Origin: Dehalococcoidia bacterium
Lineage (GTDB): Bacteria; Chloroflexota; Dehalococcoidia; Dehalococcoidales; SURF-40
Length of the DNA stretch: 48,334 bases
Assembly: GCA_003599745.1 (NCBI GenBank)
Contig: QZJL01000029.1
Location: 1-48,334 of the forward strand
Direction: 5' to 3'
The notes under the pieces are model-generated. The model saw only the letters and a program-made list of their open reading frames with translations. It was not told the origin of the DNA and did no database searches. The position numbers and the translations under genes are program-made. Shown in pieces: positions 1-45,445 of the stretch. How positions within the stretch are numbered: the stretch's first letter is position 1; each line of letters begins with the position of its first letter.

Positions 1-1088
<1,088 letters not shown>

Positions 1089-1117: not shown

Positions 1118-1218
1118 TGGGGATGATTGGAGCAACCCGGTTGTGGGAAAATTGTCATGTTGACAAACGAAAGACCGAGCGCATAAACTAAAGGAAAACG
1201 CGGGGGATGAGGTGAAAG

Positions 1219-2394
1219 ATGAAGTTACTGGTTATCGGTTTTGGGCAGTGCGGCGGGCGTATCGCCGATGAATTTGCCAGGTTGAATCTCAGGGCACGAC
1301 GGGAGCGCGGCATAGAGATTGCGCCCGGCGTCTTTGCCGTCAACACCGATGCCGCCGACTTAAGCGGCCTTTCCGCCATCCGGCCTGATTACCAGCACCG
1401 GATTTTGATTGGCAGCCGCAAAACCGGCGGTCACGGGGTGGGCAAAGTCAATGAGCTGGGAGCCGAAGTCGCCCGCGACGACGCCGATAAAATCGTAGAC
1501 GCCATCCGCTCGACCAAGCGCTTCTTCGAGTCGGACGCGTTTTTGCTTATCGCCAGCACCGGCGGCGGCACCGGCTCGGGGGCGCTTCCCGTCATGACCA
1601 AGCTCATCAAAGAGCGCTACATGGACAAGCCGGTCTACACCCTAGTCATTCTGCCCTTCGAGCACGAGGAATCCACCGAGGAAAGAAGCGTCTACAACAC
1701 CGCTACCTGCATTAAATCGGTCTCTTCTGCCGCCGACGCCGTGTTCCTGGTTGACAACCAGCGCTATGTGAGGAAAGACTTCTCGCTGCGCAACAACCTG
1801 TCTAAAATCAACGAACTGATTGCCGAACCTTTCTACAACCTGCTCTGTGCCGGTGAGGAGAAAAAGGCAAAGTACGTCGGCGCCAAGATAATTGACGCCG
1901 GCGATATTATCCAGACGGTTACCGGGTTCACCGCCATCGGTTACGGGCGGGAGCAGCTGTCGGCCTTTTCCTTTCCCTTTATCCGCAAGACCGACTTCCG
2001 AACCAAGAGCACCGAGACGCACAAGGGCATCCAGGCAATGGACAAGGCCATCAGCGAGCTATCGGTGAAGTGCAACCCGGCGGATGCTGACAAGGCGCTC
2101 TACCTGCTTGCCGCGCCGCACAGGGAAATGAATATGGATCTTGTGAAAGAGCTGGGCGAGTACCTGCGTTCCCTGGCTCCCCAGGCCACCATCCGCAACG
2201 GCGACTACCCCCGGGAAAAGGGGTTCATGGACGTTACCGTCATATTATCCGGCCTCTCCGACATGGAGAAGGTGCGTGAATACTATGCCCGCTCCACTGT
2301 CTTCATTCCCGAGTTCCAGAGGCGGCAGGTGGAATCGGCGAGCAAGCTCAAGCAGATTGACGAAGCCGCCAAAGACATCCCGTCGCTGTTGTAG
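1219..2394 (+). CDS. Tubulin/FtsZ-superfamily GTPase, CetZ-like
   Basis: N-terminus MKLLVIGFGQCGGRIADEF resembles tubulin GQCGNQ and archaeal CetZ MKLxxIGFGQxGG. Tubulin signature GGGTGSG is present (IASTGGGTGSGALPV), not the FtsZ form GGGTGTG. GHGVG..NELGAE and AGE motifs line up with my recollection of haloarchaeal CetZ1. GAGGTG SD lies 5 nt upstream. Confidence 0.85.
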   Translation: MKLLVIGFGQCGGRIADEFARLNLRARRERGIEIAPGVFAVNTDAADLSGLSAIRPDYQHRILIGSRKTGGHGVGKVNELGAEVARDDADKIVDAIRSTKRFFESDAFLLIASTGGGTGSGALPVMTKLIKERYMDKPVYTLVILPFEHEESTEERSVYNTATCIKSVSSAADAVFLVDNQRYVRKDFSLRNNLSKINELIAEPFYNLLCAGEEKKAKYVGAKIIDAGDIIQTVTGFTAIGYGREQLSAFSFPFIRKTDFRTKSTETHKGIQAMDKAISELSVKCNPADADKALYLLAAPHREMNMDLVKELGEYLRSLAPQATIRNGDYPREKGFMDVTVILSGLSDMEKVREYYARSTVFIPEFQRRQVESASKLKQIDEAAKDIPSLL

Positions 2395-2425: not shown

Positions 2426-2448
2426 AGAGGGGGCTTGTTGCCCCCTCT
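2426..2448 (+). terminator. Candidate intrinsic terminator after the tubulin-like gene
   Basis: 9-bp perfect stem AGAGGGGGC/GCCCCCTCT with loop TTGTT, followed by CTTTGCC (weak U tract). Confidence 0.4.
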
Positions 2449-2560
2449 CTTTGCCTGATGACGCCTATCGTCTTTCAACTTAATCGGGTCTAAGCGGACG
2501 GATACCATTAAACGATAGTTTGGGCTATAATATGAAAGCCAGTAAAATCCAGAGGTATAG

Positions 2561-4200
<1,640 letters not shown>

Positions 4201-4204
<4 letters not shown>

Positions 4205-4500
4205 ACAAGTTTCTGCGCCAGGCGCAGCAGCTCCAGGCACAGCTGGCCAAAGCTCAGGAAGAGCTTGCCAGCCTGACACTAGAAGCCACCGCCGGCGGCG
4301 GCGCGGTGAAGGTCACGGTTGACGGCCAGCAGAACATCAAGTCCATTAAAATCTCGCCCGAGGTGGTGAGCAGAGAAGACACCGAGCTTCTCGAAGACAT
4401 GGTGCTCGCCGGCATTAACGAAGCGTTGGAAAAGTCCCGTAAAGCCGCCCAGGACAGGCTCGGTGGGCTTACCGGCGGTCTGAAAATCCCGGGGATGTAG
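4201..4500 (+). CDS. ybaB: Nucleoid-associated protein YbaB/EbfC family
   Basis: 99 aa, MNKFLRQAQQLQAQLAKAQEEL...AGGGAVKVTVDG. ATGA overlap with the dnaX stop. Canonical dnaX-ybaB-recR synteny. Confidence 0.9.
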
Positions 4501-4631: not shown

Positions 4632-5246
4632 ATGGACTTGCCCGAACCGACACCGACCCCCGGTACGGTTGAGCGGCTCATCGGCGAACTGAACCGCCTG
4701 CCCGGCATCGGGCCGAAAAGCGCCCAGCGCCTGGCCTACCACCTGCTGCGTGCCTCGGCAGATGACGTCCGCTGCCTGGCCGAAGCCCTGACAGCCCTCA
4801 AAGAAAGGACCCGGCTCTGCTCTATCTGCTGCAACGTCACCGACAGCGACCCCTGCAATATCTGCCGCAGCGAGCAGCGCAACAAAGAGCAAATCTGCAT
4901 CGTGGAGCAACCGCAGGATATCCTCGCCATCGAGCACACCGGTGCTTACCACGGGCGCTACCACGTGCTGCACGGCGCCATTTCGCCCACCGAGGGCGTC
5001 GGCCCCGATAACGTGCGCATCAGCCATCTTATGCGCCGCCTCGACAGCGACCACGCGAGCGAGGTCATACTCGCCACCAACACCAACTTCGAGGGTGAGA
5101 CCACCGCTATGTACCTCACCCGCCTCATCGCTCCCCTAAACATCATGGTAACCCGCCTCGCAAGGGGCTTACCCTTCGGTACCGAGCTGGAATACGCCGA
5201 CGACGTGACCCTGACCCGCGCCCTGGAGGGGCGGCAGAGCTTTTAA
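4632..5246 (+). CDS. recR: Recombination protein RecR
   Basis: [17 protein letters not shown] helix-hairpin-helix, C4 zinc finger [16 protein letters not shown], Toprim region. AGGAGG SD. Confidence 0.95.
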
Positions 5247-5252
5247 CATCCT

Positions 5253-5951
5253 ATGATAACCGCCGGGAAAATCATCTCTTATTTGGAGGTGTGCCAAGAA
5301 GAAAGCGTAAATCTTCAAAGAGGCATGAATTTCCATTTGGGTAGCGGTTACAGTGTCATTCTGATGAGTCTCCGACGTGGTGCTCCGTATGCGGATAGAA
5401 CTGAAGAAAATGGGCAGATACTTATTTACGAAGGTCATGACATACCAAGAACTGACACCAGTCAGAACCCCAAAGCCGTTGACCAGCCGATGACAAACCC
5501 CAGCGGCTCACTAACTCAAAACGGCCTCTTTTACCAAGCTGCAAGTAAATACAAAGAGACCCGGGACAAACCTGAGCTTATAAGAGTCTACGAAAAGATT
5601 CACGCAGGCATTTGGGTTTATAATGGCTTGTTCAAATTAACCGATGCTTGGCAAGAGTTAAGCAAATCTCGAAAAATATTTAAGTTTAAGCTAGAAATAC
5701 TCGATGATACGACGAGAGTCAATAATGAGTTAAGAGAAAAGTCCCCAGAAAATAACCGCATAATCCCTTCCTCAGTGAAACTCGAGGTCTGGAAAAGAGG
5801 CAAGGGTCGGTGCGTGATTTGCGGGAGCAAGGATAACCTTCACTACGACCACATAATACCGTTCTCAAAAGGCGGCTCGTCCCTCGTGGCAGAGAATATT
5901 CAGCTTCTTTGCGTAAGGCACAATCTCGCTAAACGAGACAAAATAGAATAA
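5253..5951 (+). CDS. SRA/YDG-like (PUA-fold) domain fused to an HNH nuclease; putative modification-dependent (type IV) restriction endonuclease
   Basis: C-terminal HNH motif: CVICGSKDNLHYDHIIPFSKGG...NIQLLCVRHNLAKRDK. The N-terminal part follows the SRA pattern (S-x-ILMS..., LIYEGHD, DQ, IRVYEK, WVYNGLFKLTDAW, FKFKLE). AT-rich relative to its neighbours. Confidence 0.7.
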   Translation: MITAGKIISYLEVCQEESVNLQRGMNFHLGSGYSVILMSLRRGAPYADRTEENGQILIYEGHDIPRTDTSQNPKAVDQPMTNPSGSLTQNGLFYQAASKYKETRDKPELIRVYEKIHAGIWVYNGLFKLTDAWQELSKSRKIFKFKLEILDDTTRVNNELREKSPENNRIIPSSVKLEVWKRGKGRCVICGSKDNLHYDHIIPFSKGGSSLVAENIQLLCVRHNLAKRDKIE

Positions 5952-38221: not shown

Positions 38222-40876
38222 CTACTCGTCGGCGTCCTCACCATCGGGATAGACGCCGGCGTAATATTTGGGGGAGGGACGGGCGGTGCTGGCCGTCAGC
38301 ACTTCGAGCTTTGCCACCTGCACCTTGCGGTAGACTTCCTGATAGTCCTTCTTTAAGCCGTTTACGGTGAGCAAGTCGCTGATTTTGATGCCGAAAAGCC
38401 GCTCGTTTTCCTCAAGGTAAGGCAGAATGAGTTGCCAGTCTTTTTCCGACAGAGGGGCGAACTCGCCGCCATTGAGCTGCTCATCGCTCGTCTTGCGGTG
38501 CGGGTCGCGGAGATAAATGGCGCCTCCCGAGGCCAGGGAAAAGAGATTTGAGCCCGGGTAAGGCAATTCCTGCTCGGTGATATTGCCGTCATCATCGAAG
38601 GTGACGCCGTTAACGATGACGAAGCCGCCGCCGTTTAAGGGGTCGCCGGCCATAAACGACTCCGCCAGGTAGTCAAGGCAGCTTCCGTTGATGACGACAC
38701 GCGGCCTGCCCACGGCGTTGATGAGCGGCCTCCCGGCGGCGTTACCCATGATGTAAACTTCGCCGCCTTTAGCGCCGTACATAAAGGTCTGGCCCACGTC
38801 GCCGTAAATCGCCAGCTTACCCCGTTTCATTATCTGGCCGACCTGGTCCTGAGCGTTGGCGTGTACGTAAATTTCCAGCCCGTCAATGCCGGAGGCGAGG
38901 TAATCGCCCGAGGCGTCATAGACGTCAATGCGCACCCCGTCCGAGCCGGCTCCGAGGCCTGAGCCGCAAAAACGCTGTCCCCGGTAGCCATAAGCGATGA
39001 ACTGCTTCCAGCCAAACTGGTATGCCGCCACGATGAGGCGGGCGTCGCAGTCGTCGCCCTCCGGCGGAAATTCCCTGGCATTGATTACCAGTATCTTTTC
39101 ATTACCCTCTGGCGCGCGCAAGTCGTTCCGTGTTGCCCAATCAATACGTTTGTAAGTCCCCGTTGATTTTTTGCTAATCTCCGGTATGGCAGCAAAAATG
39201 CCAGCCAAGCTCTCGCGCACCGTCTGCAGAACCAGACTACGCTTTTTGTTACCCAACGGCAGGCGGATGTCGTTGATATAGGTGAGAACGTTAACGGCGG
39301 TCGCCCGTATGGTATCATTTCCAGACGCTTCGTCTGCCAAGCCGGCGCAAAAATGCCGGAGGGCGGCGTAGTCCCAGCCGGCGATGTTCTTGCGGCAGAA
39401 CTCTTTTAGAGCTATGGCTTCGGGATTTGCCAGTGCCTCTTTTATTTTTACTTCAGCCGCTTTGCCCGAGCTTGATTTTATCGCGGCCGGCTCGACTCTT
39501 TTGCTTTCCGCTCCCACCGGCTCGCCGAACTTGTTGGTGCAGGTAAGGGTCTTGGCGCCATCAGTGCCGTCTTTTACCGTGAAGATGAAAGCGCCGCCGT
39601 CGCTCGAGCTGCCGCCGCGGGCGTTCCAGTAGCGGTCGGCGATGGGGCCAAAGCGGCTGTCCTCTCTTGCCAGGCTCTGCAGGGTAGCGTCAATCGCCTG
39701 CTTTTCCGAGCAGATAAGGCCGATTTGCGCTTCGCCGTTCTGGATGGCGAAGACCTGCGGCCTCAGCATGGCGGTATCGGTGATGCCGATGAGCTGGAAT
39801 TCTTTTCTGGCGGCGTTATTGCGGGCGATGATGAAAAACCAGGGGCCGTCCGGCGAGGCGTGGAGGTGGCTCTGCTGGATGCGCCGGTATATCGCCTGCC
39901 TGGCCACTGGTAAGCGGTCGAAGTCGTGCTCGGTGGTCGGGGCGATGGCCTCGATGATGTATTCCAGGGGGTAGCCGAAGCCCCGGCTCCAGAGGTCGAA
40001 AAGCAGCACCGAAACCTCGGTATCGGTTAGGAACTGGGGGGAAATGTTAAATTCCCTGAGATACTCGGTTATGGCGTGGTAGTTGGCGAAGTCCCCGTTA
40101 TGCACCAGGGCTTCATTCAAGCCGATAAAGGGGTGGGCGCCGCCCGGGTGCCAGACCCGTCCCTTGGTGGGGTAGCGCTGGTGGGCAATCCAGCCGTGCG
40201 CCCGGAAGTTGTCGAGTAAGTAGTATTTGGCGACCAGCTCGGCGTAGCCCACGATTTTCAAAATCATCAGGTTACGGCCGTGCGAGAGCACGAAAGCCTG
40301 TTTTTCGCCCAGCGAGGCGTAGAATTTATGGTTAAGGCGATAAGAGTTCTGGTAGATGAACTCGTCCTCGGCGGCGCGCCGGTCTAAGCCGCCGAGCCTG
40401 TTTTCGGTGATGAAGCGGCTAAGGGCGTCCTCTTTGACGCGCACGAAATAGCGGTTGACGTCGGGCGGCTTGACTTCCAGTCCCTTAATGTCGCGGTAGT
40501 CGTCAACCGTGGGCACCTTGCTTGCCTGATGGATTTCCAGATAAGGCTCGATGCACTTTTTCTCCACTCTGCCGGCGGCTTTGGGGTCGAGCAGGGCGAC
40601 CTGGAGCATGTAGTCGTTATCGAGAATGTCCGGTGACACACCGAGGTCTTCGGCCACCATGCCGACGGCGGCGATGCCGCCGCCCTTGCCGTTGCCCCGG
40701 TTATGCATCTGCACCGACGGCTCGAAAATGTGTCGTCCGCCCACCGGGAGGGAGGCGATGAAGCCGGTGACGCCGCAGCCGCCCTCTTCCGCCGCCTTGC
40801 CCTTCTCAAAGGTGTCTTCGGGTAATGCGGCGCGGGAGGCAGCTATTTTGTCGAACAGGTCATTTTTGTCAGTCAT
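38222..40876 (-). CDS. Glutamate-synthase-like protein: class II (Ntn) glutamine amidotransferase domain fused to a GXGXG (GltB C-terminal) domain
   Basis: Catalytic-Cys context EEGGCGVTGFI after a 33-aa presequence. HQRYPTKG, HNGDFANYH and DTEV are present. C-terminal region: GDVGQTFMYGAKGGEVYIMGNAAGRPLINAVGRPRVVINGSCLDYLAESFMAG. Confidence 0.85.
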   Translation of the reverse strand: MTDKNDLFDKIAASRAALPEDTFEKGKAAEEGGCGVTGFIASLPVGGRHIFEPSVQMHNRGNGKGGGIAAVGMVAEDLGVSPDILDNDYMLQVALLDPKAAGRVEKKCIEPYLEIHQASKVPTVDDYRDIKGLEVKPPDVNRYFVRVKEDALSRFITENRLGGLDRRAAEDEFIYQNSYRLNHKFYASLGEKQAFVLSHGRNLMILKIVGYAELVAKYYLLDNFRAHGWIAHQRYPTKGRVWHPGGAHPFIGLNEALVHNGDFANYHAITEYLREFNISPQFLTDTEVSVLLFDLWSRGFGYPLEYIIEAIAPTTEHDFDRLPVARQAIYRRIQQSHLHASPDGPWFFIIARNNAARKEFQLIGITDTAMLRPQVFAIQNGEAQIGLICSEKQAIDATLQSLAREDSRFGPIADRYWNARGGSSSDGGAFIFTVKDGTDGAKTLTCTNKFGEPVGAESKRVEPAAIKSSSGKAAEVKIKEALANPEAIALKEFCRKNIAGWDYAALRHFCAGLADEASGNDTIRATAVNVLTYINDIRLPLGNKKRSLVLQTVRESLAGIFAAIPEISKKSTGTYKRIDWATRNDLRAPEGNEKILVINAREFPPEGDDCDARLIVAAYQFGWKQFIAYGYRGQRFCGSGLGAGSDGVRIDVYDASGDYLASGIDGLEIYVHANAQDQVGQIMKRGKLAIYGDVGQTFMYGAKGGEVYIMGNAAGRPLINAVGRPRVVINGSCLDYLAESFMAGDPLNGGGFVIVNGVTFDDDGNITEQELPYPGSNLFSLASGGAIYLRDPHRKTSDEQLNGGEFAPLSEKDWQLILPYLEENERLFGIKISDLLTVNGLKKDYQEVYRKVQVAKLEVLTASTARPSPKYYAGVYPDGEDADE

Positions 40877-40885
40877 TGTGTTGCC

Positions 40886-42439
40886 TCATAACACCAGCTT
40901 CTTCTTCGGGGTCGGCTGATACTCCTGACGTTCTTCTTCATCCAGGTAGTCCAGGTGTACCAGCAGGTCGGAGCGCCCCACCAGTTCCCGGATGCTGCGC
41001 ATGCCGTAGCGGCGCAAAATCTCGCACCATTGCTTGCGCCAGGCGGTGTACATGTTGACCAGCCGCTGCTCCGCCCACTCCTCGCCGATTTCGCAGCCAA
41101 GCTCGGGGTCGGTGGTGGCGATGCTGCGGGCACAGCCCCGCCCGCTCTCGCAGTTGCCGCAGCGGATACATTCGAGGGCGACCAGTTCGGCGGTGCCGAT
41201 GACGGCGCCGTCGGCTCCCAGGGCGATGGCTTTCGCCACATCCACCGCGTTGCGGATGCCGCCGGAGGCCATAAAGCAAAGCTCGTCGCGCACTCCCTCG
41301 TTGAGCAAAAAGCGGTGCACTTTGGGTATGGCGTATTCGATGGGCATGGCGATGTTTTTCTTGGAAATGTCCGGGGCGGCGCCGGTGCCGCCGTACTTGC
41401 CGTCAAAATGAATGATGTTGGTGCCGGCGTAGTAGCTGCCCACCGCCACCATGTCGCAGTCGGTGGGGGTCGAGACCTTCACCGATACCAGCGCCCGGGG
41501 ATTGATTTCTTTAATCCAGTCGAGGTGCTTTTTGTGGTCTTCCACCGAGTAGACACTGTGGAAGGGAAACGGCGAAAACAGCGAGCTGCCGACCACCGTC
41601 TCGCGGATTTTGGCAACCTCGGCGGTGACTTTATCGCCCAGAAGGTGGCCGCCCAGCCCGGGTTTGGCGCCCTGGGCGTACTTGAACTCGACCACCGGGG
41701 CGCGCTGGATGGTCTCTTCCCGCACGCCGAAAAGCCCGGTCGCCACCTGGGTGATGATGTTGTCCTTGTAGGGGACAAAGGCGTCGGGGTAGCCGCCCTC
41801 ACCGGTACAGGTGAGGGTATCAAGTTTGCCGGCCGCTCGCGCCCGCGCCACCAGCACCGGCAGCGCCGTCGAGCCAAACGACATGCCGCCGGAGTAGCAG
41901 GGTAGCGAGAGCACCCTTTCCGGTCGTCCGTCCTGGCGCTTGTTAAGACAAATCGAGGTGTCAATTTCCTCATCGGGAATATCGAGATAATCTTTGGGGT
42001 CGGGGATGCGGAAGCGCATCTTGTCGAATCCGCCGCCGGAGTAGCCCAGGCTGTATTCGAGGTCAATGTAAGGCAGCTCGCCGGTCTCGGCCATGTACCA
42101 GTGTCCCAAAATCATCTCCGCCGGCCAGCGGTAGTCCCCCAGCGTCTCGATGATAGGATTAACCGCCACCGAAAGAGCCTGCTGCGGGCAGTTTTTTACG
42201 CAGTAGAAGTCGTTGGCCTGGCACTTCGGGCCGACGCACTTATAGTCGAGCGGGCGCACCGGCTGGCTGTAGCCCTCGTAACGGAGGTGCACGCCGTAAG
42301 GGCAAAGCTCGGCGCATTTTCCGCAGGAGATGCACTGCGCACTGCGCCGCACGACGTACTTGCCGATGGGGTTGCGGTAGCGGGACGGCGTTACTTTTAC
42401 CTCGGGGAGTACGGTTTTCTCAGTCATGGTGGTGCTCAC
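40886..42439 (-). CDS. Glutamate-synthase FMN-binding (central) domain protein with N-terminal 2x[4Fe-4S] ferredoxin motifs (archaeal GltB2-like)
   Basis: CISCGKCAELCP and CVKNCP, then GGMSFGS, CTGEGG, KYAQGAKPGLGGHLLGDKV, SPFPFHSVYSVEDH, ASGGIRN. The listed start is GTG 42439 (GTGA overlap with the upstream gene); ATG 42427 is an alternative. Confidence 0.85.
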   Translation of the reverse strand: MSTTMTEKTVLPEVKVTPSRYRNPIGKYVVRRSAQCISCGKCAELCPYGVHLRYEGYSQPVRPLDYKCVGPKCQANDFYCVKNCPQQALSVAVNPIIETLGDYRWPAEMILGHWYMAETGELPYIDLEYSLGYSGGGFDKMRFRIPDPKDYLDIPDEEIDTSICLNKRQDGRPERVLSLPCYSGGMSFGSTALPVLVARARAAGKLDTLTCTGEGGYPDAFVPYKDNIITQVATGLFGVREETIQRAPVVEFKYAQGAKPGLGGHLLGDKVTAEVAKIRETVVGSSLFSPFPFHSVYSVEDHKKHLDWIKEINPRALVSVKVSTPTDCDMVAVGSYYAGTNIIHFDGKYGGTGAAPDISKKNIAMPIEYAIPKVHRFLLNEGVRDELCFMASGGIRNAVDVAKAIALGADGAVIGTAELVALECIRCGNCESGRGCARSIATTDPELGCEIGEEWAEQRLVNMYTAWRKQWCEILRRYGMRSIRELVGRSDLLVHLDYLDEEERQEYQPTPKKKLVL

Positions 42440-43848
42440 ATTCCTATCCCGCTCACTTTTCGCGTGCCGAATAGCGGTGCAAAGCTATCTCTTTCGAGGT
42501 CGTCGAACCACATTGACCGGCCGACTTCGCCCCGCATCCGTCTTGCCTCGCGGATGCCGAAAGCGCCCATTACCTCCAGCAGCTGGTTGTGCCAGGCGCA
42601 CATCAGGTTGGTGATGCGCTGCGCCGCCCATCCCCGCTCAACCTCGCCGAGCTTCACCGGGCAGCTTTTGCCGTCCTTGCAGCGGTAGCAGAGACGGCAT
42701 TCCAGAGCAACGAGTAACGGCGTGTCAATCGCCACCGCGTCCGCCCCGCAGATGAGCGACTTGGCGACGTGCTCGGCCAGGATGACCCCGCCGGAAAAGA
42801 TGAGATTAACTTCCGGACGGATGCGGTTTTCCACCAGTTTGAGATGGATTTCCCGAATCATATCCTTGAGATAGCGCGGCTTTCCCGCACCCACTTCACG
42901 TCCTTTTTCGCTGCCGTAAAAGTGGATGGTATCCACCCCGGTCCTGGCAAGTTCCAGCGCCCGCGCCGCGGCTTCAGCATCCAGCGGCAGGCCGACCGAA
43001 GTAAACAGCCCCGGTTTTATAGAACGCAGGTCGGCAAAGGTTTTTTCGATGCCCGGCCCATCGGCAAGCTCAACCATGCAGCTGGCACGGATGAGGTCAG
43101 CATAGCTCTGGTAGTTGGCCGCTGTCAGGCGCGGTATTAAGCTCCCGGCGTATTCCGCGATTTGGGGTGAGTAGTTTTCTGCCTTAACGAACATCAGGCT
43201 GCCAAGCTCGCCGGCGGCTTCCGCCATCGCCAGGCGCACCGTTTCGCTCAAGATTCCGAACTCCGGCTCCTGGAAGACGATGGGCAGCGGTATTTCAAGT
43301 ATTGGCGCAGGTTCACTTGCCAGCGACATATCTTCTTTGAACTCGAGCTTTACTGGGCGGCGGGAAAGCTCGACGGTGGTGTTGATATACTCGCGCCCGT
43401 GGATGCCGTCACGGGTGGGGCGCACAATCTCCGACATGTCCGTCCAGATGGCGTCAAAGCCTTCCCCGACAAAGGGGCCTCTGTAACCGGCGCCCGAAAC
43501 CGGGATTTTGCCGGTATGCGCCTGCGCCCAGGTTGAACTGATGATATTGGGCGTAAAGTAGTCGTCGCCCATCGTCCGGTATTCCGGGTTGACCGCCATC
43601 GAGAATATGCCCTTGGTACACTCCTCGACGCAGCGGTAGCAGCTCTTGCAGATATAGAGATACTCCGGCTCGGTCATGGTGCTCCAGTGCAGGAAGTTGT
43701 CCTTGAAGATGCCGTAGACGCACCTCTTCTTGACGCAGAGGCGGCAGCTGCCGGCGCAGTCCTCGCGGAACTCCACCGTGGCATACTTGCCAACCGGCGG
43801 AAAGCGGGGGTCGGCGACTCTGGGATGTATGGCGTATTTTTTAGGCAT
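42436..43848 (-). CDS. Divergent glutamate-synthase-related paralogue with an N-terminal Cys-rich region
   Basis: The C-terminal half parallels the 517-aa neighbour: ICGADAVAIDTPLLVALECRLCYRC here, LGADGAVIGTAELVALECIRCGNC there. N-terminal Cys motifs CRLCVKKRC and CKSCYRCVEEC. Canonical FMN-site motifs are not obvious. Confidence 0.65.
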   Translation of the reverse strand: MPKKYAIHPRVADPRFPPVGKYATVEFREDCAGSCRLCVKKRCVYGIFKDNFLHWSTMTEPEYLYICKSCYRCVEECTKGIFSMAVNPEYRTMGDDYFTPNIISSTWAQAHTGKIPVSGAGYRGPFVGEGFDAIWTDMSEIVRPTRDGIHGREYINTTVELSRRPVKLEFKEDMSLASEPAPILEIPLPIVFQEPEFGILSETVRLAMAEAAGELGSLMFVKAENYSPQIAEYAGSLIPRLTAANYQSYADLIRASCMVELADGPGIEKTFADLRSIKPGLFTSVGLPLDAEAAARALELARTGVDTIHFYGSEKGREVGAGKPRYLKDMIREIHLKLVENRIRPEVNLIFSGGVILAEHVAKSLICGADAVAIDTPLLVALECRLCYRCKDGKSCPVKLGEVERGWAAQRITNLMCAWHNQLLEVMGAFGIREARRMRGEVGRSMWFDDLERDSFAPLFGTRKVSGIGM

Positions 43849-43865
43849 GATTATCTACCTGTCCG

Positions 43866-44780
43866 CTAAGCAGGCCGGGGATAGAGTTTACTTTTCTCCA
43901 CAATCTCAGGGACAACACTTTCCCACTCGATGGCCATGAGGTGGATGCCCGCCACGCCTTTAGTCTCACGCAGCTCGGCTACGGTCTCCGTGCAGATTTT
44001 GATGCCCTCTTCGGCGGCCCTGTCCTCGGGGACACCGGCCATCCGCTTGATGACCGCCTCCGGCACGCTCATACCAGCCACCTTGTTCGCCATATACTTT
44101 GCCATCCTGGTTGACTTCATCGGTGTTACCCCGGCCAGTATATAGACTTTCTCCAGCAGCCCCCGCTCTTCAGCCATTTTCAGCCACTCTTTAAAGCGCG
44201 GCAGGTCATAAACGCACTGGGTCTGGATGAACCGGGCGCCGGCGGCGATTTTTTTCGCCAGGCGGATGACGCGGTATTCGAAGGGGTCGGCGAAGGGGTT
44301 TTCCGCCGCCCCGATGAACATCTCGGGGGCAACGTTGAGTTTGTAGCCGCTCATGTCGGTGCCCTCATCGCTCATTTTCTTAACCGTATTCAGAAGGTGC
44401 ATTGAGTCAATGTCATAGACGTTTCTGGCATCGGGCTGGCTGCCGAAGGTCTGGTGGTCGCCGGAGAGGCACAGGATATTTCTGATGCCCAGGGAGTATG
44501 CTCCCATAATGTCCGATTGCAGGGCGATGCGGTTGCGGTCGCGGGTTACCATCTGCATGACCGGCTCGATGCCCATCTGGAGAAGATGGGCGCAGGCGGC
44601 GACGCTTGACATGCGCACGATGGCCGTCTGGTTATCGGTCACGTTGACGGCGTCGGTGTAGCCTTTTAAGGCCGCGCCTTTCTTTTTGATGACCTCGGCG
44701 TTGGCGCCGCGAGGCGGGCCGCACTCGGCGGTCACCGCGAACTGGCCGCTTAGTAATATTTGTTCCAGTCGGGTGGTCAT
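43866..44780 (-). CDS. metF: Methylenetetrahydrofolate reductase, MetF subunit (acetogen/anaerobe MetFV type)
   Basis: FAVTAECGPPRG, VNVTDNQTAIVRMSS, CLSGDH, and the TIM-barrel pattern typical of MetF. ATGA overlap with metV. Confidence 0.88.
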   Translation of the reverse strand: MTTRLEQILLSGQFAVTAECGPPRGANAEVIKKKGAALKGYTDAVNVTDNQTAIVRMSSVAACAHLLQMGIEPVMQMVTRDRNRIALQSDIMGAYSLGIRNILCLSGDHQTFGSQPDARNVYDIDSMHLLNTVKKMSDEGTDMSGYKLNVAPEMFIGAAENPFADPFEYRVIRLAKKIAAGARFIQTQCVYDLPRFKEWLKMAEERGLLEKVYILAGVTPMKSTRMAKYMANKVAGMSVPEAVIKRMAGVPEDRAAEEGIKICTETVAELRETKGVAGIHLMAIEWESVVPEIVEKSKLYPRPA

Positions 44781-45445
44781 ACCATCAAGTCCTCTCTGAC
44801 CAGTTTCCGGGGGCCGCCGGCGTCGGCGGTGCGCCAGTCCTTCGGGGGGACGTAGTTATAGAGCTTTTCCGTCTCGCCGAAGGCCTGGTAGCGGTCAATG
44901 ATGAGCTGCCAGGCGCAGTCGGTCTCGGGATTTACCTCGCACTTACCGTTTTTCGAGCCGCCGCAGGGGCCGTTGAGCAGCTTCTTGGAGCAACGGCTGA
45001 TGGGGCAGATGCCCGAAAACACATCCAGGACGCAGTTGCCGCAGCCCAGGCACTTCTCGGTAAAAAGCCCCGGCTGCTCCAGAATGCCGATAAAGGTGGT
45101 GTTCACCCCGGGCAGCACCGGTATTTTGGGAAAGCGGCTGGCAACCATCTGCACCCCGGCACCGCAGGCCAGTGACAGGACCGCCTGGTTCTGGGTCGCC
45201 AGGGATGCCGCCTGCCGGATGAATTCGCCCTCGCACTGGCGCTCGACCGTAAGCTCGCTGATTTTGGTTTTCTTACCGTCCTTGCCGAAGGCCAGGCGCA
45301 GCGCGGAAGCCAGCGTCGCCACCTCTTCCTCGCCGCCGGCAAAACAGGTCTTGACGCACGTCCCGCAGCCTAAAATGAGGAAATTGTCATAAGGCGCGAC
45401 CATGGCCTTGATTTCCTCAAGCGGTTTTTGCTCGCCAACTATCAT
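44777..45445 (-). CDS. metV: Methylene-THF reductase-associated MetV subunit (MTHFR C-terminal/zinc-ribbon FeS protein)
   Basis: LILGCGTCVKTCFAGG, CLGCGNCV, CPISRCSKKLLNGPCGGSKNGKCEV...CAW. Confidence 0.8.
   Translation of the reverse strand: MIVGEQKPLEEIKAMVAPYDNFLILGCGTCVKTCFAGGEEEVATLASALRLAFGKDGKKTKISELTVERQCEGEFIRQAASLATQNQAVLSLACGAGVQMVASRFPKIPVLPGVNTTFIGILEQPGLFTEKCLGCGNCVLDVFSGICPISRCSKKLLNGPCGGSKNGKCEVNPETDCAWQLIIDRYQAFGETEKLYNYVPPKDWRTADAGGPRKLVREDLMV

Follow-up and report, generated by a model that had tools for sequence, protein, structure and literature searches.

The window analyzed here, a 48,334-nucleotide stretch of contig QZJL01000029.1 (assembly GCA_003599745.1, a Dehalococcoidia bacterium of the order Dehalococcoidales), encodes a 391-aa GTPase of the tubulin/FtsZ superfamily that is CetZ-like and not an ordinary FtsZ. 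The gene is a further species-level member of an already catalogued, little-studied bacterial CetZ-like clade. That it is real, far beyond chance, was confirmed by Pfam E values, by hundreds of full-length homologues, and by a ratio of nonsynonymous to synonymous substitution rates (dN/dS) of about 0.10. With moderate confidence, we favor the reading that it encodes a functional CetZ-like protein, vertically inherited in Dehalococcoidia, whose GTP filaments would shape or remodel wall-less cells beside FtsZ-driven division.

An earlier interpretation made from the DNA letters and their translations (here, the sequence-only reading) had proposed a CetZ-like protein from its motifs, and these were all recovered: the N-terminal motif as GFGQCGGRIADEF (residues 7 to 19), the GHGVG..NELGAE block as GGHGVGKVNELGAE (residues 70 to 83), and the tubulin signature GGGTGSG (residues 115 to 121), which occurs once among the six frames of the whole window. 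Domain content, sequence matches in the PDB, and predicted fold all agree with that proposal. Pfam Tubulin (E = 1.5e-35) and CetZ_C (E = 2.6e-19) were each matched above the gathering threshold, while the same search gave no match to FtsZ_C or Tubulin_C. The best PDB sequence matches were CetZ1 (4b46; E = 3.6e-46) and CetZ2 (4b45; E = 8.5e-35), both full length, and then the CetZ of Methanosaeta (Methanothrix) thermophila; FtsZs matched at 1e-13 to 1e-9 over the N-terminal domain only, and tubulins at 1e-8 to 1e-6. The sequence-only reading had named placement within ordinary bacterial FtsZ as one result that would count against it; the FtsZ equivalog model TIGR00065 (NCBIfam) scored 70.4 bits against a cut-off of 295.2 and aligned only at model positions 19 to 197, the N-terminal half.

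Membership in the other families of the superfamily was considered and rejected. FtsZ was set aside on the equivalog score and on gene context, as the loci examined do not lie in a dcw/ftsA-ftsZ neighborhood. For tubulin and BtubAB, Tubulin_C was not matched and E values of 1e-8 to 1e-6 compare with 1e-46 for CetZ1. Tubulin_2 (PF13809, the FtsZl1 type) fell below its Pfam gathering threshold (17.4 bits versus 27), with only a 40-residue stretch around T4 aligned. TubZ was rejected on the chromosomal housekeeping context, the lack of a TubR-like neighbor, and the lack of any TubZ among the top 50 fold matches.

The fold was modeled with AlphaFold from a diverse 73-sequence alignment, giving a mean predicted local distance difference test score (pLDDT) of 92.9 and a predicted template modeling score (pTM) of 0.90. 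This model replaced one built from a shallow alignment (55 sequences, 72 to 100% identical; pLDDT 59.8), in which the C-terminal domain was unusable. In a Foldseek search of the PDB, the structures 4b46, 4b45, and 3zid (CetZ1, CetZ2, and M. thermophila CetZ) occupied ranks 1 to 4, with E values of 7e-35 to 1e-27. CetZ1 matched at E = 7e-35, with a target template modeling (TM) score of 0.91 and a root mean square deviation of 2.5 Å, and CetZ2 had a target TM score of 0.92. FtsZ structures were ~10 orders of magnitude weaker than CetZ (target TM about 0.84), and no tubulin, BtubAB, or TubZ structure was among the top 50 matches. The comparison with CetZ structures that the sequence-only reading had called for, with attention to the C-terminal helix, thus came out in its favor: CetZs rank first, and the model contains a 35-residue C-terminal helix at residues 350 to 384. 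Confidence was low in the M-loop (residues 251 to 260, pLDDT about 57) and in the last seven residues (pLDDT 53).

Motifs were aligned to CetZ1, CetZ2, and FtsZ, and residue conservation was measured over 55 family members. The T1 loop carries GQCGG, the tubulin form with Cys, where archaeal CetZ has GQAGG. The T3 region reads GGHGVG, and T5 contains a clade-specific three-residue insertion (HEESTEER). In T4, residues G116, G117, T118, G119, S120, and G121 are invariant, and many paralogues carry AGGTGSG instead of GGGTGSG. In the T7 motif IDAGDI, the invariant residues are D226, G228, D229, and I230, of which D226 and D229 line up with D215 and E218 of CetZ1 and with the NVDFADV motif of FtsZ. 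These two are presumed to act as catalytic acids, completing the GTPase site in the subunit that follows; in CetZ1, the E218A mutant is GTPase defective (10.1101/2024.04.08.588506). The GTP-binding apparatus is complete in T1 and T4, T7 has its two invariant acids, and the gene is under strong purifying selection. The M-loop is of intermediate length and aligns with the long M-loop of CetZ1, with P253, F260, R261, K263, and E266 conserved in the family. In CetZ1, the long M-loop with its hydrophobic tip LLSRL and the C-terminal tail LESLF are essential, and mutants in T7, in the M-loop, and at the C-tail all abolish function (10.1101/2024.04.08.588506).

Following a variable stretch, the protein ends in a short hydrophobic peptide. 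The motif D-[ILV]-P-[ST]-L-L is family wide, with P388 and L390 invariant and L391 at least 90% conserved. Similar tails occur in paralogues, in deep bacterial members (…IPLLL and …LPSLL), in Bathyarchaeia (KDIPPLL), and in Thermococci (FDLPPL). The likeness to FtsZ C-terminal peptides is striking; these read DIPAFLRKQAD in 9isk_A and MDIPAFLRR or LNIPSILRR in Chloroflexota FtsZ. The DIPSLL tail, the combination of a D-x-x-D T7 with a GQCGG T1, the slot next to dnaX, and the four-gene module of 28 related loci (both described below) have apparently gone unreported.

Nearest to the window protein are hundreds of sequences of 391 aa, labeled as Dehalococcoidales, Dehalococcoidia, or Chloroflexota and 72 to 90% identical to it. 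When GTDB genomes were scanned with each species represented once, at least 531 loci emerged, and the 80 best all came from Dehalococcoidia metagenome-assembled genomes (MAGs). In an exhaustive search of representative sequences, 82 clusters passed E ≤ 1e-30 and 326 passed E ≤ 1e-10. A Dehalococcoidia CetZ-like clade, including matches to the CetZ_C hidden Markov model, was listed by Santana-Molina et al. in 2023 (PMC9871819). With 65% full-length identity to Dehalogenimonas AKG53714.1, the window protein belongs to that clade, and it falls short of the novelty that the sequence-only reading implied. In the published maximum-likelihood (ML) tree, Dehalococcoidia and a few Patescibacteria form a 100%-supported clade among archaeal CetZ-like lineages; its Dehalococcoidia come from the orders GIF9 and Dehalococcoidales and include D. 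mccartyi, Dehalogenimonas formicexedens, and three paralogues of one Dehalogenimonas genome (PMC9871819). The clade lies outside the node that those authors call canonical CetZ (PMC9871819), and with the clade separate from that node the window protein is best called CetZ-like.

Our neighbor-joining (NJ) tree of 80 full-length sequences, with one FtsZ as the outgroup in its rooted version, placed the window protein in a group of 32 apart from the group containing CetZ1 and CetZ2, with 100/100 bootstrap support unrooted and 0.91 with the FtsZ outgroup. The CetZ1/CetZ2 group also held sequences labeled as Halobacteria, Thermococci, and Bathyarchaeia. Deep members of the window's group had bacterial-type neighborhoods in the two loci that were looked up. 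A separate bacterial CetZ-like clade, one of the outcomes anticipated by the sequence-only reading, was seen in both the NJ and the published ML trees; support for archaeal monophyly in the NJ tree was only 0.23. That reading had posed a choice between a horizontally acquired archaeal-type protein and a member of a little-studied bacterial clade; these describe the same thing, with the amendment that the transfer was old and the gene is domesticated and not a recent arrival. The position in the published tree fits an ancient archaea-to-bacteria transfer. Most likely, the gene entered an early Dehalococcoidia ancestor from archaea and was later duplicated to two or three paralogues in many lineages.

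Two observations from the published tree concern the extent of such transfer. The Patescibacteria sequences in the clade are Paceibacteria, and another Dehalococcoidia group, of the order UBA3495 and separate from the first, is nested with Bathyarchaeia and Hydrothermarchaeota (PMC9871819, supplementary file 43); more than one interdomain transfer therefore appears to have occurred. A divergent branch of the same bacterial-type clade (the P0148 cluster) is represented at L089:8001-10305 and L090:8001-10305 by a 418-aa CetZ-like protein followed by a conserved 327-aa protein. Since this region is dense in IS605/TnpB, resolvases, IS66, and group II intron reverse transcriptase, the P0148 branch may travel with mobile DNA.

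The host of the window gene is bacterial, as indicated by dnaX, ybaB, recR, recO, F-type ATP synthase, and FtsK in the window. The same-strand eno, dnaX, ybaB, and recR genes reported by the sequence-only reading were all located between positions 205 and 5246, and recO, lysS, and serS come after recR on the same strand as the CetZ-like gene. Synteny was counted over the best 80 of the at least 531 GTDB loci, 69 of which were evaluable; dnaX lay downstream on the same strand in 59 of these 69 Dehalococcoidia loci, with a median gap of 152 bp. The usual order in related loci is eno/gap, CetZ-like gene, dnaX, ybaB, recR, a variable gene, recO, lysS, and serS, and the same order was found in a closed 1.12-Mb genome (CP070693.1), in other long contigs, and in a second contig of the same JGI sample. 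The contig is not chimeric, a possibility that the sequence-only reading had left standing against itself, since synteny is conserved in these loci and in the closed genome. G+C content in the CetZ-like gene (0.57 to 0.59) equals that of its flanks, and dN/dS against the nearest relatives was 0.10 to 0.14, with the value of about 0.10 obtained against the closest. Synteny, G+C content, and dN/dS together therefore identify the gene as an old, vertically inherited, and selected resident, neither a chimera nor a recent import. The dnaX-ybaB-recR slot has been occupied since before the sampled Dehalococcoidia diverged. In no locus examined was a CetZ-like gene linked to ftsA, ftsZ, or mraZ.

Many relatives have two or three paralogues. 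The second paralogue found in many genomes is 58 to 68% identical and lies in tandem or about 3 kb upstream, and second paralogues sit beside eno/gap or with coiled-coil-like proteins. In all 28 of the 28 loci that have both of two hypothetical genes, these form a four-gene module with two CetZ-like paralogues, with the hypotheticals on the opposite strand. One hypothetical gene encodes a protein of ~174 aa, and the other a ~570- to 730-aa protein of Ala/Glu/Lys-rich helical repeats; neither matched a Pfam family above threshold. Examples of the module are L011:6529-8847, L013:8414-10724, and L033:2980-5747, with 25 other related loci. Both hypothetical genes are absent from 48 single-copy loci and likewise from the window. 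The module suggests filament-associated partners.

Published work on relatives bears on how such a protein would coexist with FtsZ. Dehalococcoidales keep mraZ-mraW-ftsA-ftsZ, but their peptidoglycan (dcw) genes are gone and their wall is S-layer-like (PMC10608941). In D. mccartyi 195, ftsZ (DET0343) stands beside ftsA (DET0342), and two more "FtsZ" genes, DET0589 and DET0636, are both transcribed (PMC5102406); two CetZ_C matches per D. mccartyi genome appear in a published table (PMC9871819). Since D. mccartyi and Dehalococcoidales keep the canonical ftsZ-ftsA pair, the CetZ-like gene is read as an extra paralogue and not as an FtsZ replacement. In D. mccartyi BTF08, the "FtsZ/Tubulin GTPase" btf_0551, the "FtsZ" btf_0595, and a nearby hypothetical protein were abundant in disc-shaped cells of the pure culture and low or undetected in barrel-shaped cells of the co-culture (PMC8163811). 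We infer that btf_0551 is orthologous to the family of the window gene, and DET0589, DET0636, and btf_0551 probably belong to the Dehalococcoidia CetZ-like clade. Locus tags are spaced by 44 between btf_0551 and btf_0595 and by 47 between DET0589 and DET0636, with the canonical ftsZ at DET0343. The "FtsZ" btf_0595 may thus be the second CetZ-like paralogue and not the canonical FtsZ, in which case the two BTF08 proteins may be a CetZ-like pair.

Signals around the window gene (Table 1) give it the look of its own transcription unit, judged from a promoter-like site, a Shine-Dalgarno sequence, a hairpin, and a separate −10 box of dnaX. The promoter candidate is a consensus match only and is at chance level (one site versus a shuffle mean of 1.2). 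The region of the hairpin (positions 2395 to 2470) had a minimum free energy of −34.2 kcal/mol (z = −3.4), and the hairpin is likely a transcription terminator between the CetZ-like gene and dnaX; a consensus terminator scan missed it because its T-tract is short. No RNA runs containing the gene were found, and only three DNA metagenomes matched, each with 5 to 9% of the sampled words.

Table 1. Coordinates of the CetZ-like gene, its domains and motifs, the surrounding candidate signals, and adjacent genes in the window
Feature	Position	Strand	Basis or detail
Enolase C terminus (3' end of eno)	205-711	+	
Candidate sigma-70-like promoter, TTGACA, 18-nt spacer, TAAACT	1160..1189	+	10/12 matches; 30 nt upstream of start codon
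Shine-Dalgarno sequence GAGGTG	1209..1214	+	Read from sequence; 4 nt before ATG
Coding sequence of 391-aa CetZ-like tubulin/FtsZ-superfamily GTPase	1219..2394	+	Intact ATG-to-stop open reading frame, stop included
N-terminal GTPase domain, Pfam Tubulin (PF00091), residues 3-182	1225..1764	+	E = 1.5e-35; pLDDT 84-98
T1 loop GFGQCGG, inside GTPase domain	1237-1257	+	Motif alignment
T4 tubulin signature GGGTGSG, residues 115-121	1561..1581	+	Read from sequence; motif alignment
C-terminal CetZ_C domain, Pfam PF21011, residues 189-356	1783..2286	+	E = 2.6e-19; 69.8 bits versus gathering score of 21.6
T7 (synergy) loop IIDAGDIIQ, residues 224-232	1888..1914	+	Alignments with CetZ1 and FtsZ
M-loop region, residues 243-265, AFSFPFI hydrophobic cluster then DFRxKSxE	1945..2013	+	Alignment; flexible in model
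Long C-terminal helix, residues 350-384, CetZ/tubulin-style H11 extension	2266..2370	+	DSSP on AlphaFold model; pLDDT 84-97
C-terminal tail peptide KDIPSLL, candidate adaptor-docking peptide	2371..2391	+	Conservation; motif likeness
GC-rich hairpin, likely terminator; 9-bp stem AGAGGGGGC / GCCCCCUCU, 5-nt loop, then CUUUGCC	2426..2448	+	RNA folding; 32 nt after stop
TATAAT box ahead of dnaX	2526-2531		
dnaX	2561-4204	+	
ybaB	4201-4500	+	
recR	4632-5246	+	

The mechanism that we propose for a shape-related role follows from what is known of the protein's relatives. Like CetZ1, FtsZ, and tubulin, the protein would polymerize head to tail on GTP; each subunit's T7 loop would switch on hydrolysis in its neighbor, giving dynamic protofilaments. 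The flexible, hydrophobic M-loop could make lateral or envelope contacts, and the DIPSLL peptide, lying past the long helix and the variable stretch, might tether the filament to an adaptor, most economically to one that recognizes the similar tail of FtsZ, namely FtsA, or SepF if present. The filaments would then help to shape a disc-like wall-less cell or to remodel its envelope, alongside FtsZ-driven division. What evidence there is for the link to shape is indirect and comes from the BTF08 proteome.

Several points weigh against this reading. Everything proposed on polymerization, membrane association, binding to an adaptor, and cell shape is carried over from homologues by analogy. The window covers 48 kb, and both the retention of ftsZ-ftsA and the loss of wall genes are known from other Dehalococcoidales. 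The BTF08 correlation includes a protein labeled FtsZ and could simply mirror growth rate. A few Patescibacteria, which are not known as wall-less, fall inside the same clade (PMC9871819). Support for archaeal monophyly is only 0.23 (NJ, one FtsZ outgroup), a value compatible with a sister or a nested position and with either direction of transfer. The likeness of the tail to the FtsZ peptide extends over about 6 residues, and the basic residues that trail DIPxFL are missing; it is a likeness by motif comparison, since a phmmer search of the last 38 residues against the PDB gave chance matches only.

Among the other explanations, the one that deserves most attention is that one or more CetZ-like proteins work with FtsZ at the division site as a second division protein, the FtsZ-like DIPSLL tail bringing them to the adaptor that FtsZ uses, by analogy with wall-less archaea, where assembling the ring and constricting it are divided between two FtsZ paralogues. 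The closest counterpart of the tail is the core DIPxΦL of the FtsZ C-terminal peptide, T7 is of the FtsZ D-x-x-D type and not the CetZ D-x-x-E type, and according to a review of CetZ, having two FtsZs matters in archaea that lack a pseudomurein wall. Dehalococcoidales without wall synthesis nevertheless keep ftsA-ftsZ (PMC10608941), and in BTF08 the tubulin-like protein and "FtsZ" drop together in cells with an arrested ring-shaped septum (PMC8163811). Fold and domain content, however, are those of CetZ and not FtsZ, characterized CetZs are dispensable for division, and the loci examined show no linkage to ftsA, ftsZ, or mraZ; we therefore regard a division role as conceivable but rather unlikely. 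A mistaken identity, in which the gene is the divergent canonical FtsZ of the organism misread as CetZ-like, would account for the many database entries labeled "cell division protein FtsZ" or "cell division GTPase FtsZ." We give it next to no credence: the match to TIGR00065 (70 bits versus 295) is confined to the N-terminal domain, CetZ_C was matched and FtsZ_C was not, and the gene is not beside ftsA, while D. mccartyi has a separate ftsZ-ftsA pair.

Tubulin-superfamily proteins such as TubZ segregate DNA, and a DNA-associated, TubZ-like filament acting in chromosome segregation or replication-linked organization would explain the dnaX-ybaB-recR slot. Adjacency to dnaX, ybaB (a nucleoid-associated protein), and recR is indeed conserved (59/69 loci), but streamlined genomes can keep gene order without a functional link, and the promoter-like site, Shine-Dalgarno sequence, strong hairpin, and −10 box before dnaX give the gene the look of a separate transcription unit. 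Neither a TubR-like partner nor centromere-like repeats adjoin the gene, CetZ structures lead the fold matches with TubZ and BtubA/B outside the top 50, and second paralogues are located elsewhere, by eno/gap or coiled-coil-like proteins. A DNA-directed role is accordingly improbable in our judgment. An artifact, whether through chimerism or contamination of the contig or through a recent insertion from archaea without a role in the host, might be suspected for an archaeal-type gene on a bacterial contig when CetZ is called archaea specific. This suspicion is effectively refuted by the same gene order in dozens of independent assemblies, including the closed 1.12-Mb genome and a second assembly from the same sample, by a G+C content like that of the flanks and a dN/dS of about 0.1, and by the family forming its own bacterial clade, distinct from archaeal sequences.

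The reading that we prefer, a vertically inherited CetZ-like protein with a role in shaping or remodeling the cell, can be extended to a more specific and decidedly speculative proposal. An archaeal-style envelope cytoskeleton might have been co-opted when the lineage swapped peptidoglycan for an S-layer; docking via an FtsZ-type peptide on FtsA or SepF, and together with the linked helical repeat proteins, it would set the disc shape and help division. If that were true, CetZ would be a cross-domain solution for shaping S-layer cells and not an archaeal specialty.

Reviews and other CetZ literature describe the family as archaea specific, which is a taxonomic habit of the literature and not a molecular criterion. 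A large bacterial clade carries CetZ-like proteins despite that label and is an underappreciated exception, and for Dehalococcoidia the gene is ordinary; the window adds one more member to a catalogued family. The clade includes cultivable organohalide respirers of use in bioremediation (Dehalococcoides and Dehalogenimonas), and these peptidoglycan-less bacteria with an archaeal-looking S-layer offer a natural test of whether CetZ-type filaments shape or divide wall-less cells. Dehalococcoidia CetZ-like proteins could also show how a tubulin-superfamily protein adapts after crossing domains, and their FtsZ-like tail and FtsZ-type T7 loop, together with the helical repeat proteins linked to them, are concrete, testable handles.

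Other features of the window were recorded as observations in their own right. A 126-aa hydrophobic open reading frame (positions 708 to 1088, + strand) lies directly upstream of the CetZ-like gene and overlaps the enolase stop codon (ATGA). It matched no Pfam family and lacks a counterpart in the 80 related loci, in which its place is taken by gap or by other genes, and it was rejected as a partner because no homologue stands beside the CetZ-like gene in those loci. The slot between recR and recO holds a gene for a 232-aa SAD/SRA and HNH nuclease (5253 to 5951, + strand) with a G+C content of 0.44 to 0.48 compared to about 0.59; in relatives, the slot carries Fer4 plus AFOR, a Polyketide_cyc2 protein, or an N6/N4 DNA methylase. 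The SAD/SRA-HNH gene looks like a modified-cytosine-dependent (type IV restriction-like) defense gene inserted in a variable hotspot. Elsewhere the window holds ordinary bacterial housekeeping genes: RF2, endonuclease V, the operon of an F-type ATP synthase, FtsK, RNase J, two-component systems, and glutamate-synthase-like genes. The last of these form a cluster of split genes (38222 to 45445, − strand), encoding a protein with a GXGXG domain and two proteins with Glu_synthase domains, one of them carrying Fe-S motifs, adjoining MTHFR, DUF5981, and an FlpD/MvhD-like gene, a layout reminiscent of archaeal-type GltS and electron-bifurcating MTHFR modules.

Compared with known systems, the window protein is distant from eukaryotic tubulin and BtubA/B. 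It shares with them the T1 GQCG, the T4 GGGTGSG, and a C-terminal helical extension, but the matches are weak (BtubB, 1.8e-8; gamma-tubulin, about 1e-6). Bacterial FtsZ shares the superfamily fold, the T7 D-x-x-D, and a C-terminal peptide like the adaptor-binding DIPAFLR. It differs in its GGGTGTG T4, its GGGGGN T1, its FtsZ_C domain and long disordered linker, and its dcw/ftsA neighborhood, whereas the window protein carries CetZ_C and, at its C terminus, a long helix.

Closer by far is Haloferax volcanii CetZ1 (4b46), an archaeal cell-shape cytoskeletal protein and the best sequence match (E = 3.6e-46 over residues 1 to 377). The two share Tubulin and CetZ_C domains, GGGTGSG, and GHGVG..NELGAE; in each, the M-loop is long and contains a hydrophobic cluster, and a C-terminal helix is present along with a tail that is short and hydrophobic. 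CetZ1 differs in its archaeal host, in an identity of about 31%, and in belonging to a well-supported separate clade; its T1 is GQAGG versus GQCGG in the window protein, its T7 is D-x-x-E versus D-x-x-D, and its tail is LESLF versus DIPSLL. The window protein also has a 3-residue T5 insertion and an M-loop about 9 residues shorter. H. volcanii CetZ2 (4b45) and M. thermophila CetZ (3zid), the second- and third-best fold matches, are 22 to 29% identical, and the M-loop of CetZ2 is very short. A Methanosarcinia clade with a Methanothrix thermoacetophila sequence is a near neighbor of the Dehalococcoidia clade (PMC9871819). The Dehalococcoidia CetZ-like clade itself (AKG53714.1; D. mccartyi WP_041331079.1 and WP_010936364.1) comes from the same host class as the window protein, and AKG53714.1 has the same length, motifs, M-loop, and KDIPSLL tail. 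The window holds one copy, located at the dnaX locus, where many relatives have two or three paralogues per genome; otherwise, nothing fundamental separates the window protein from this clade.

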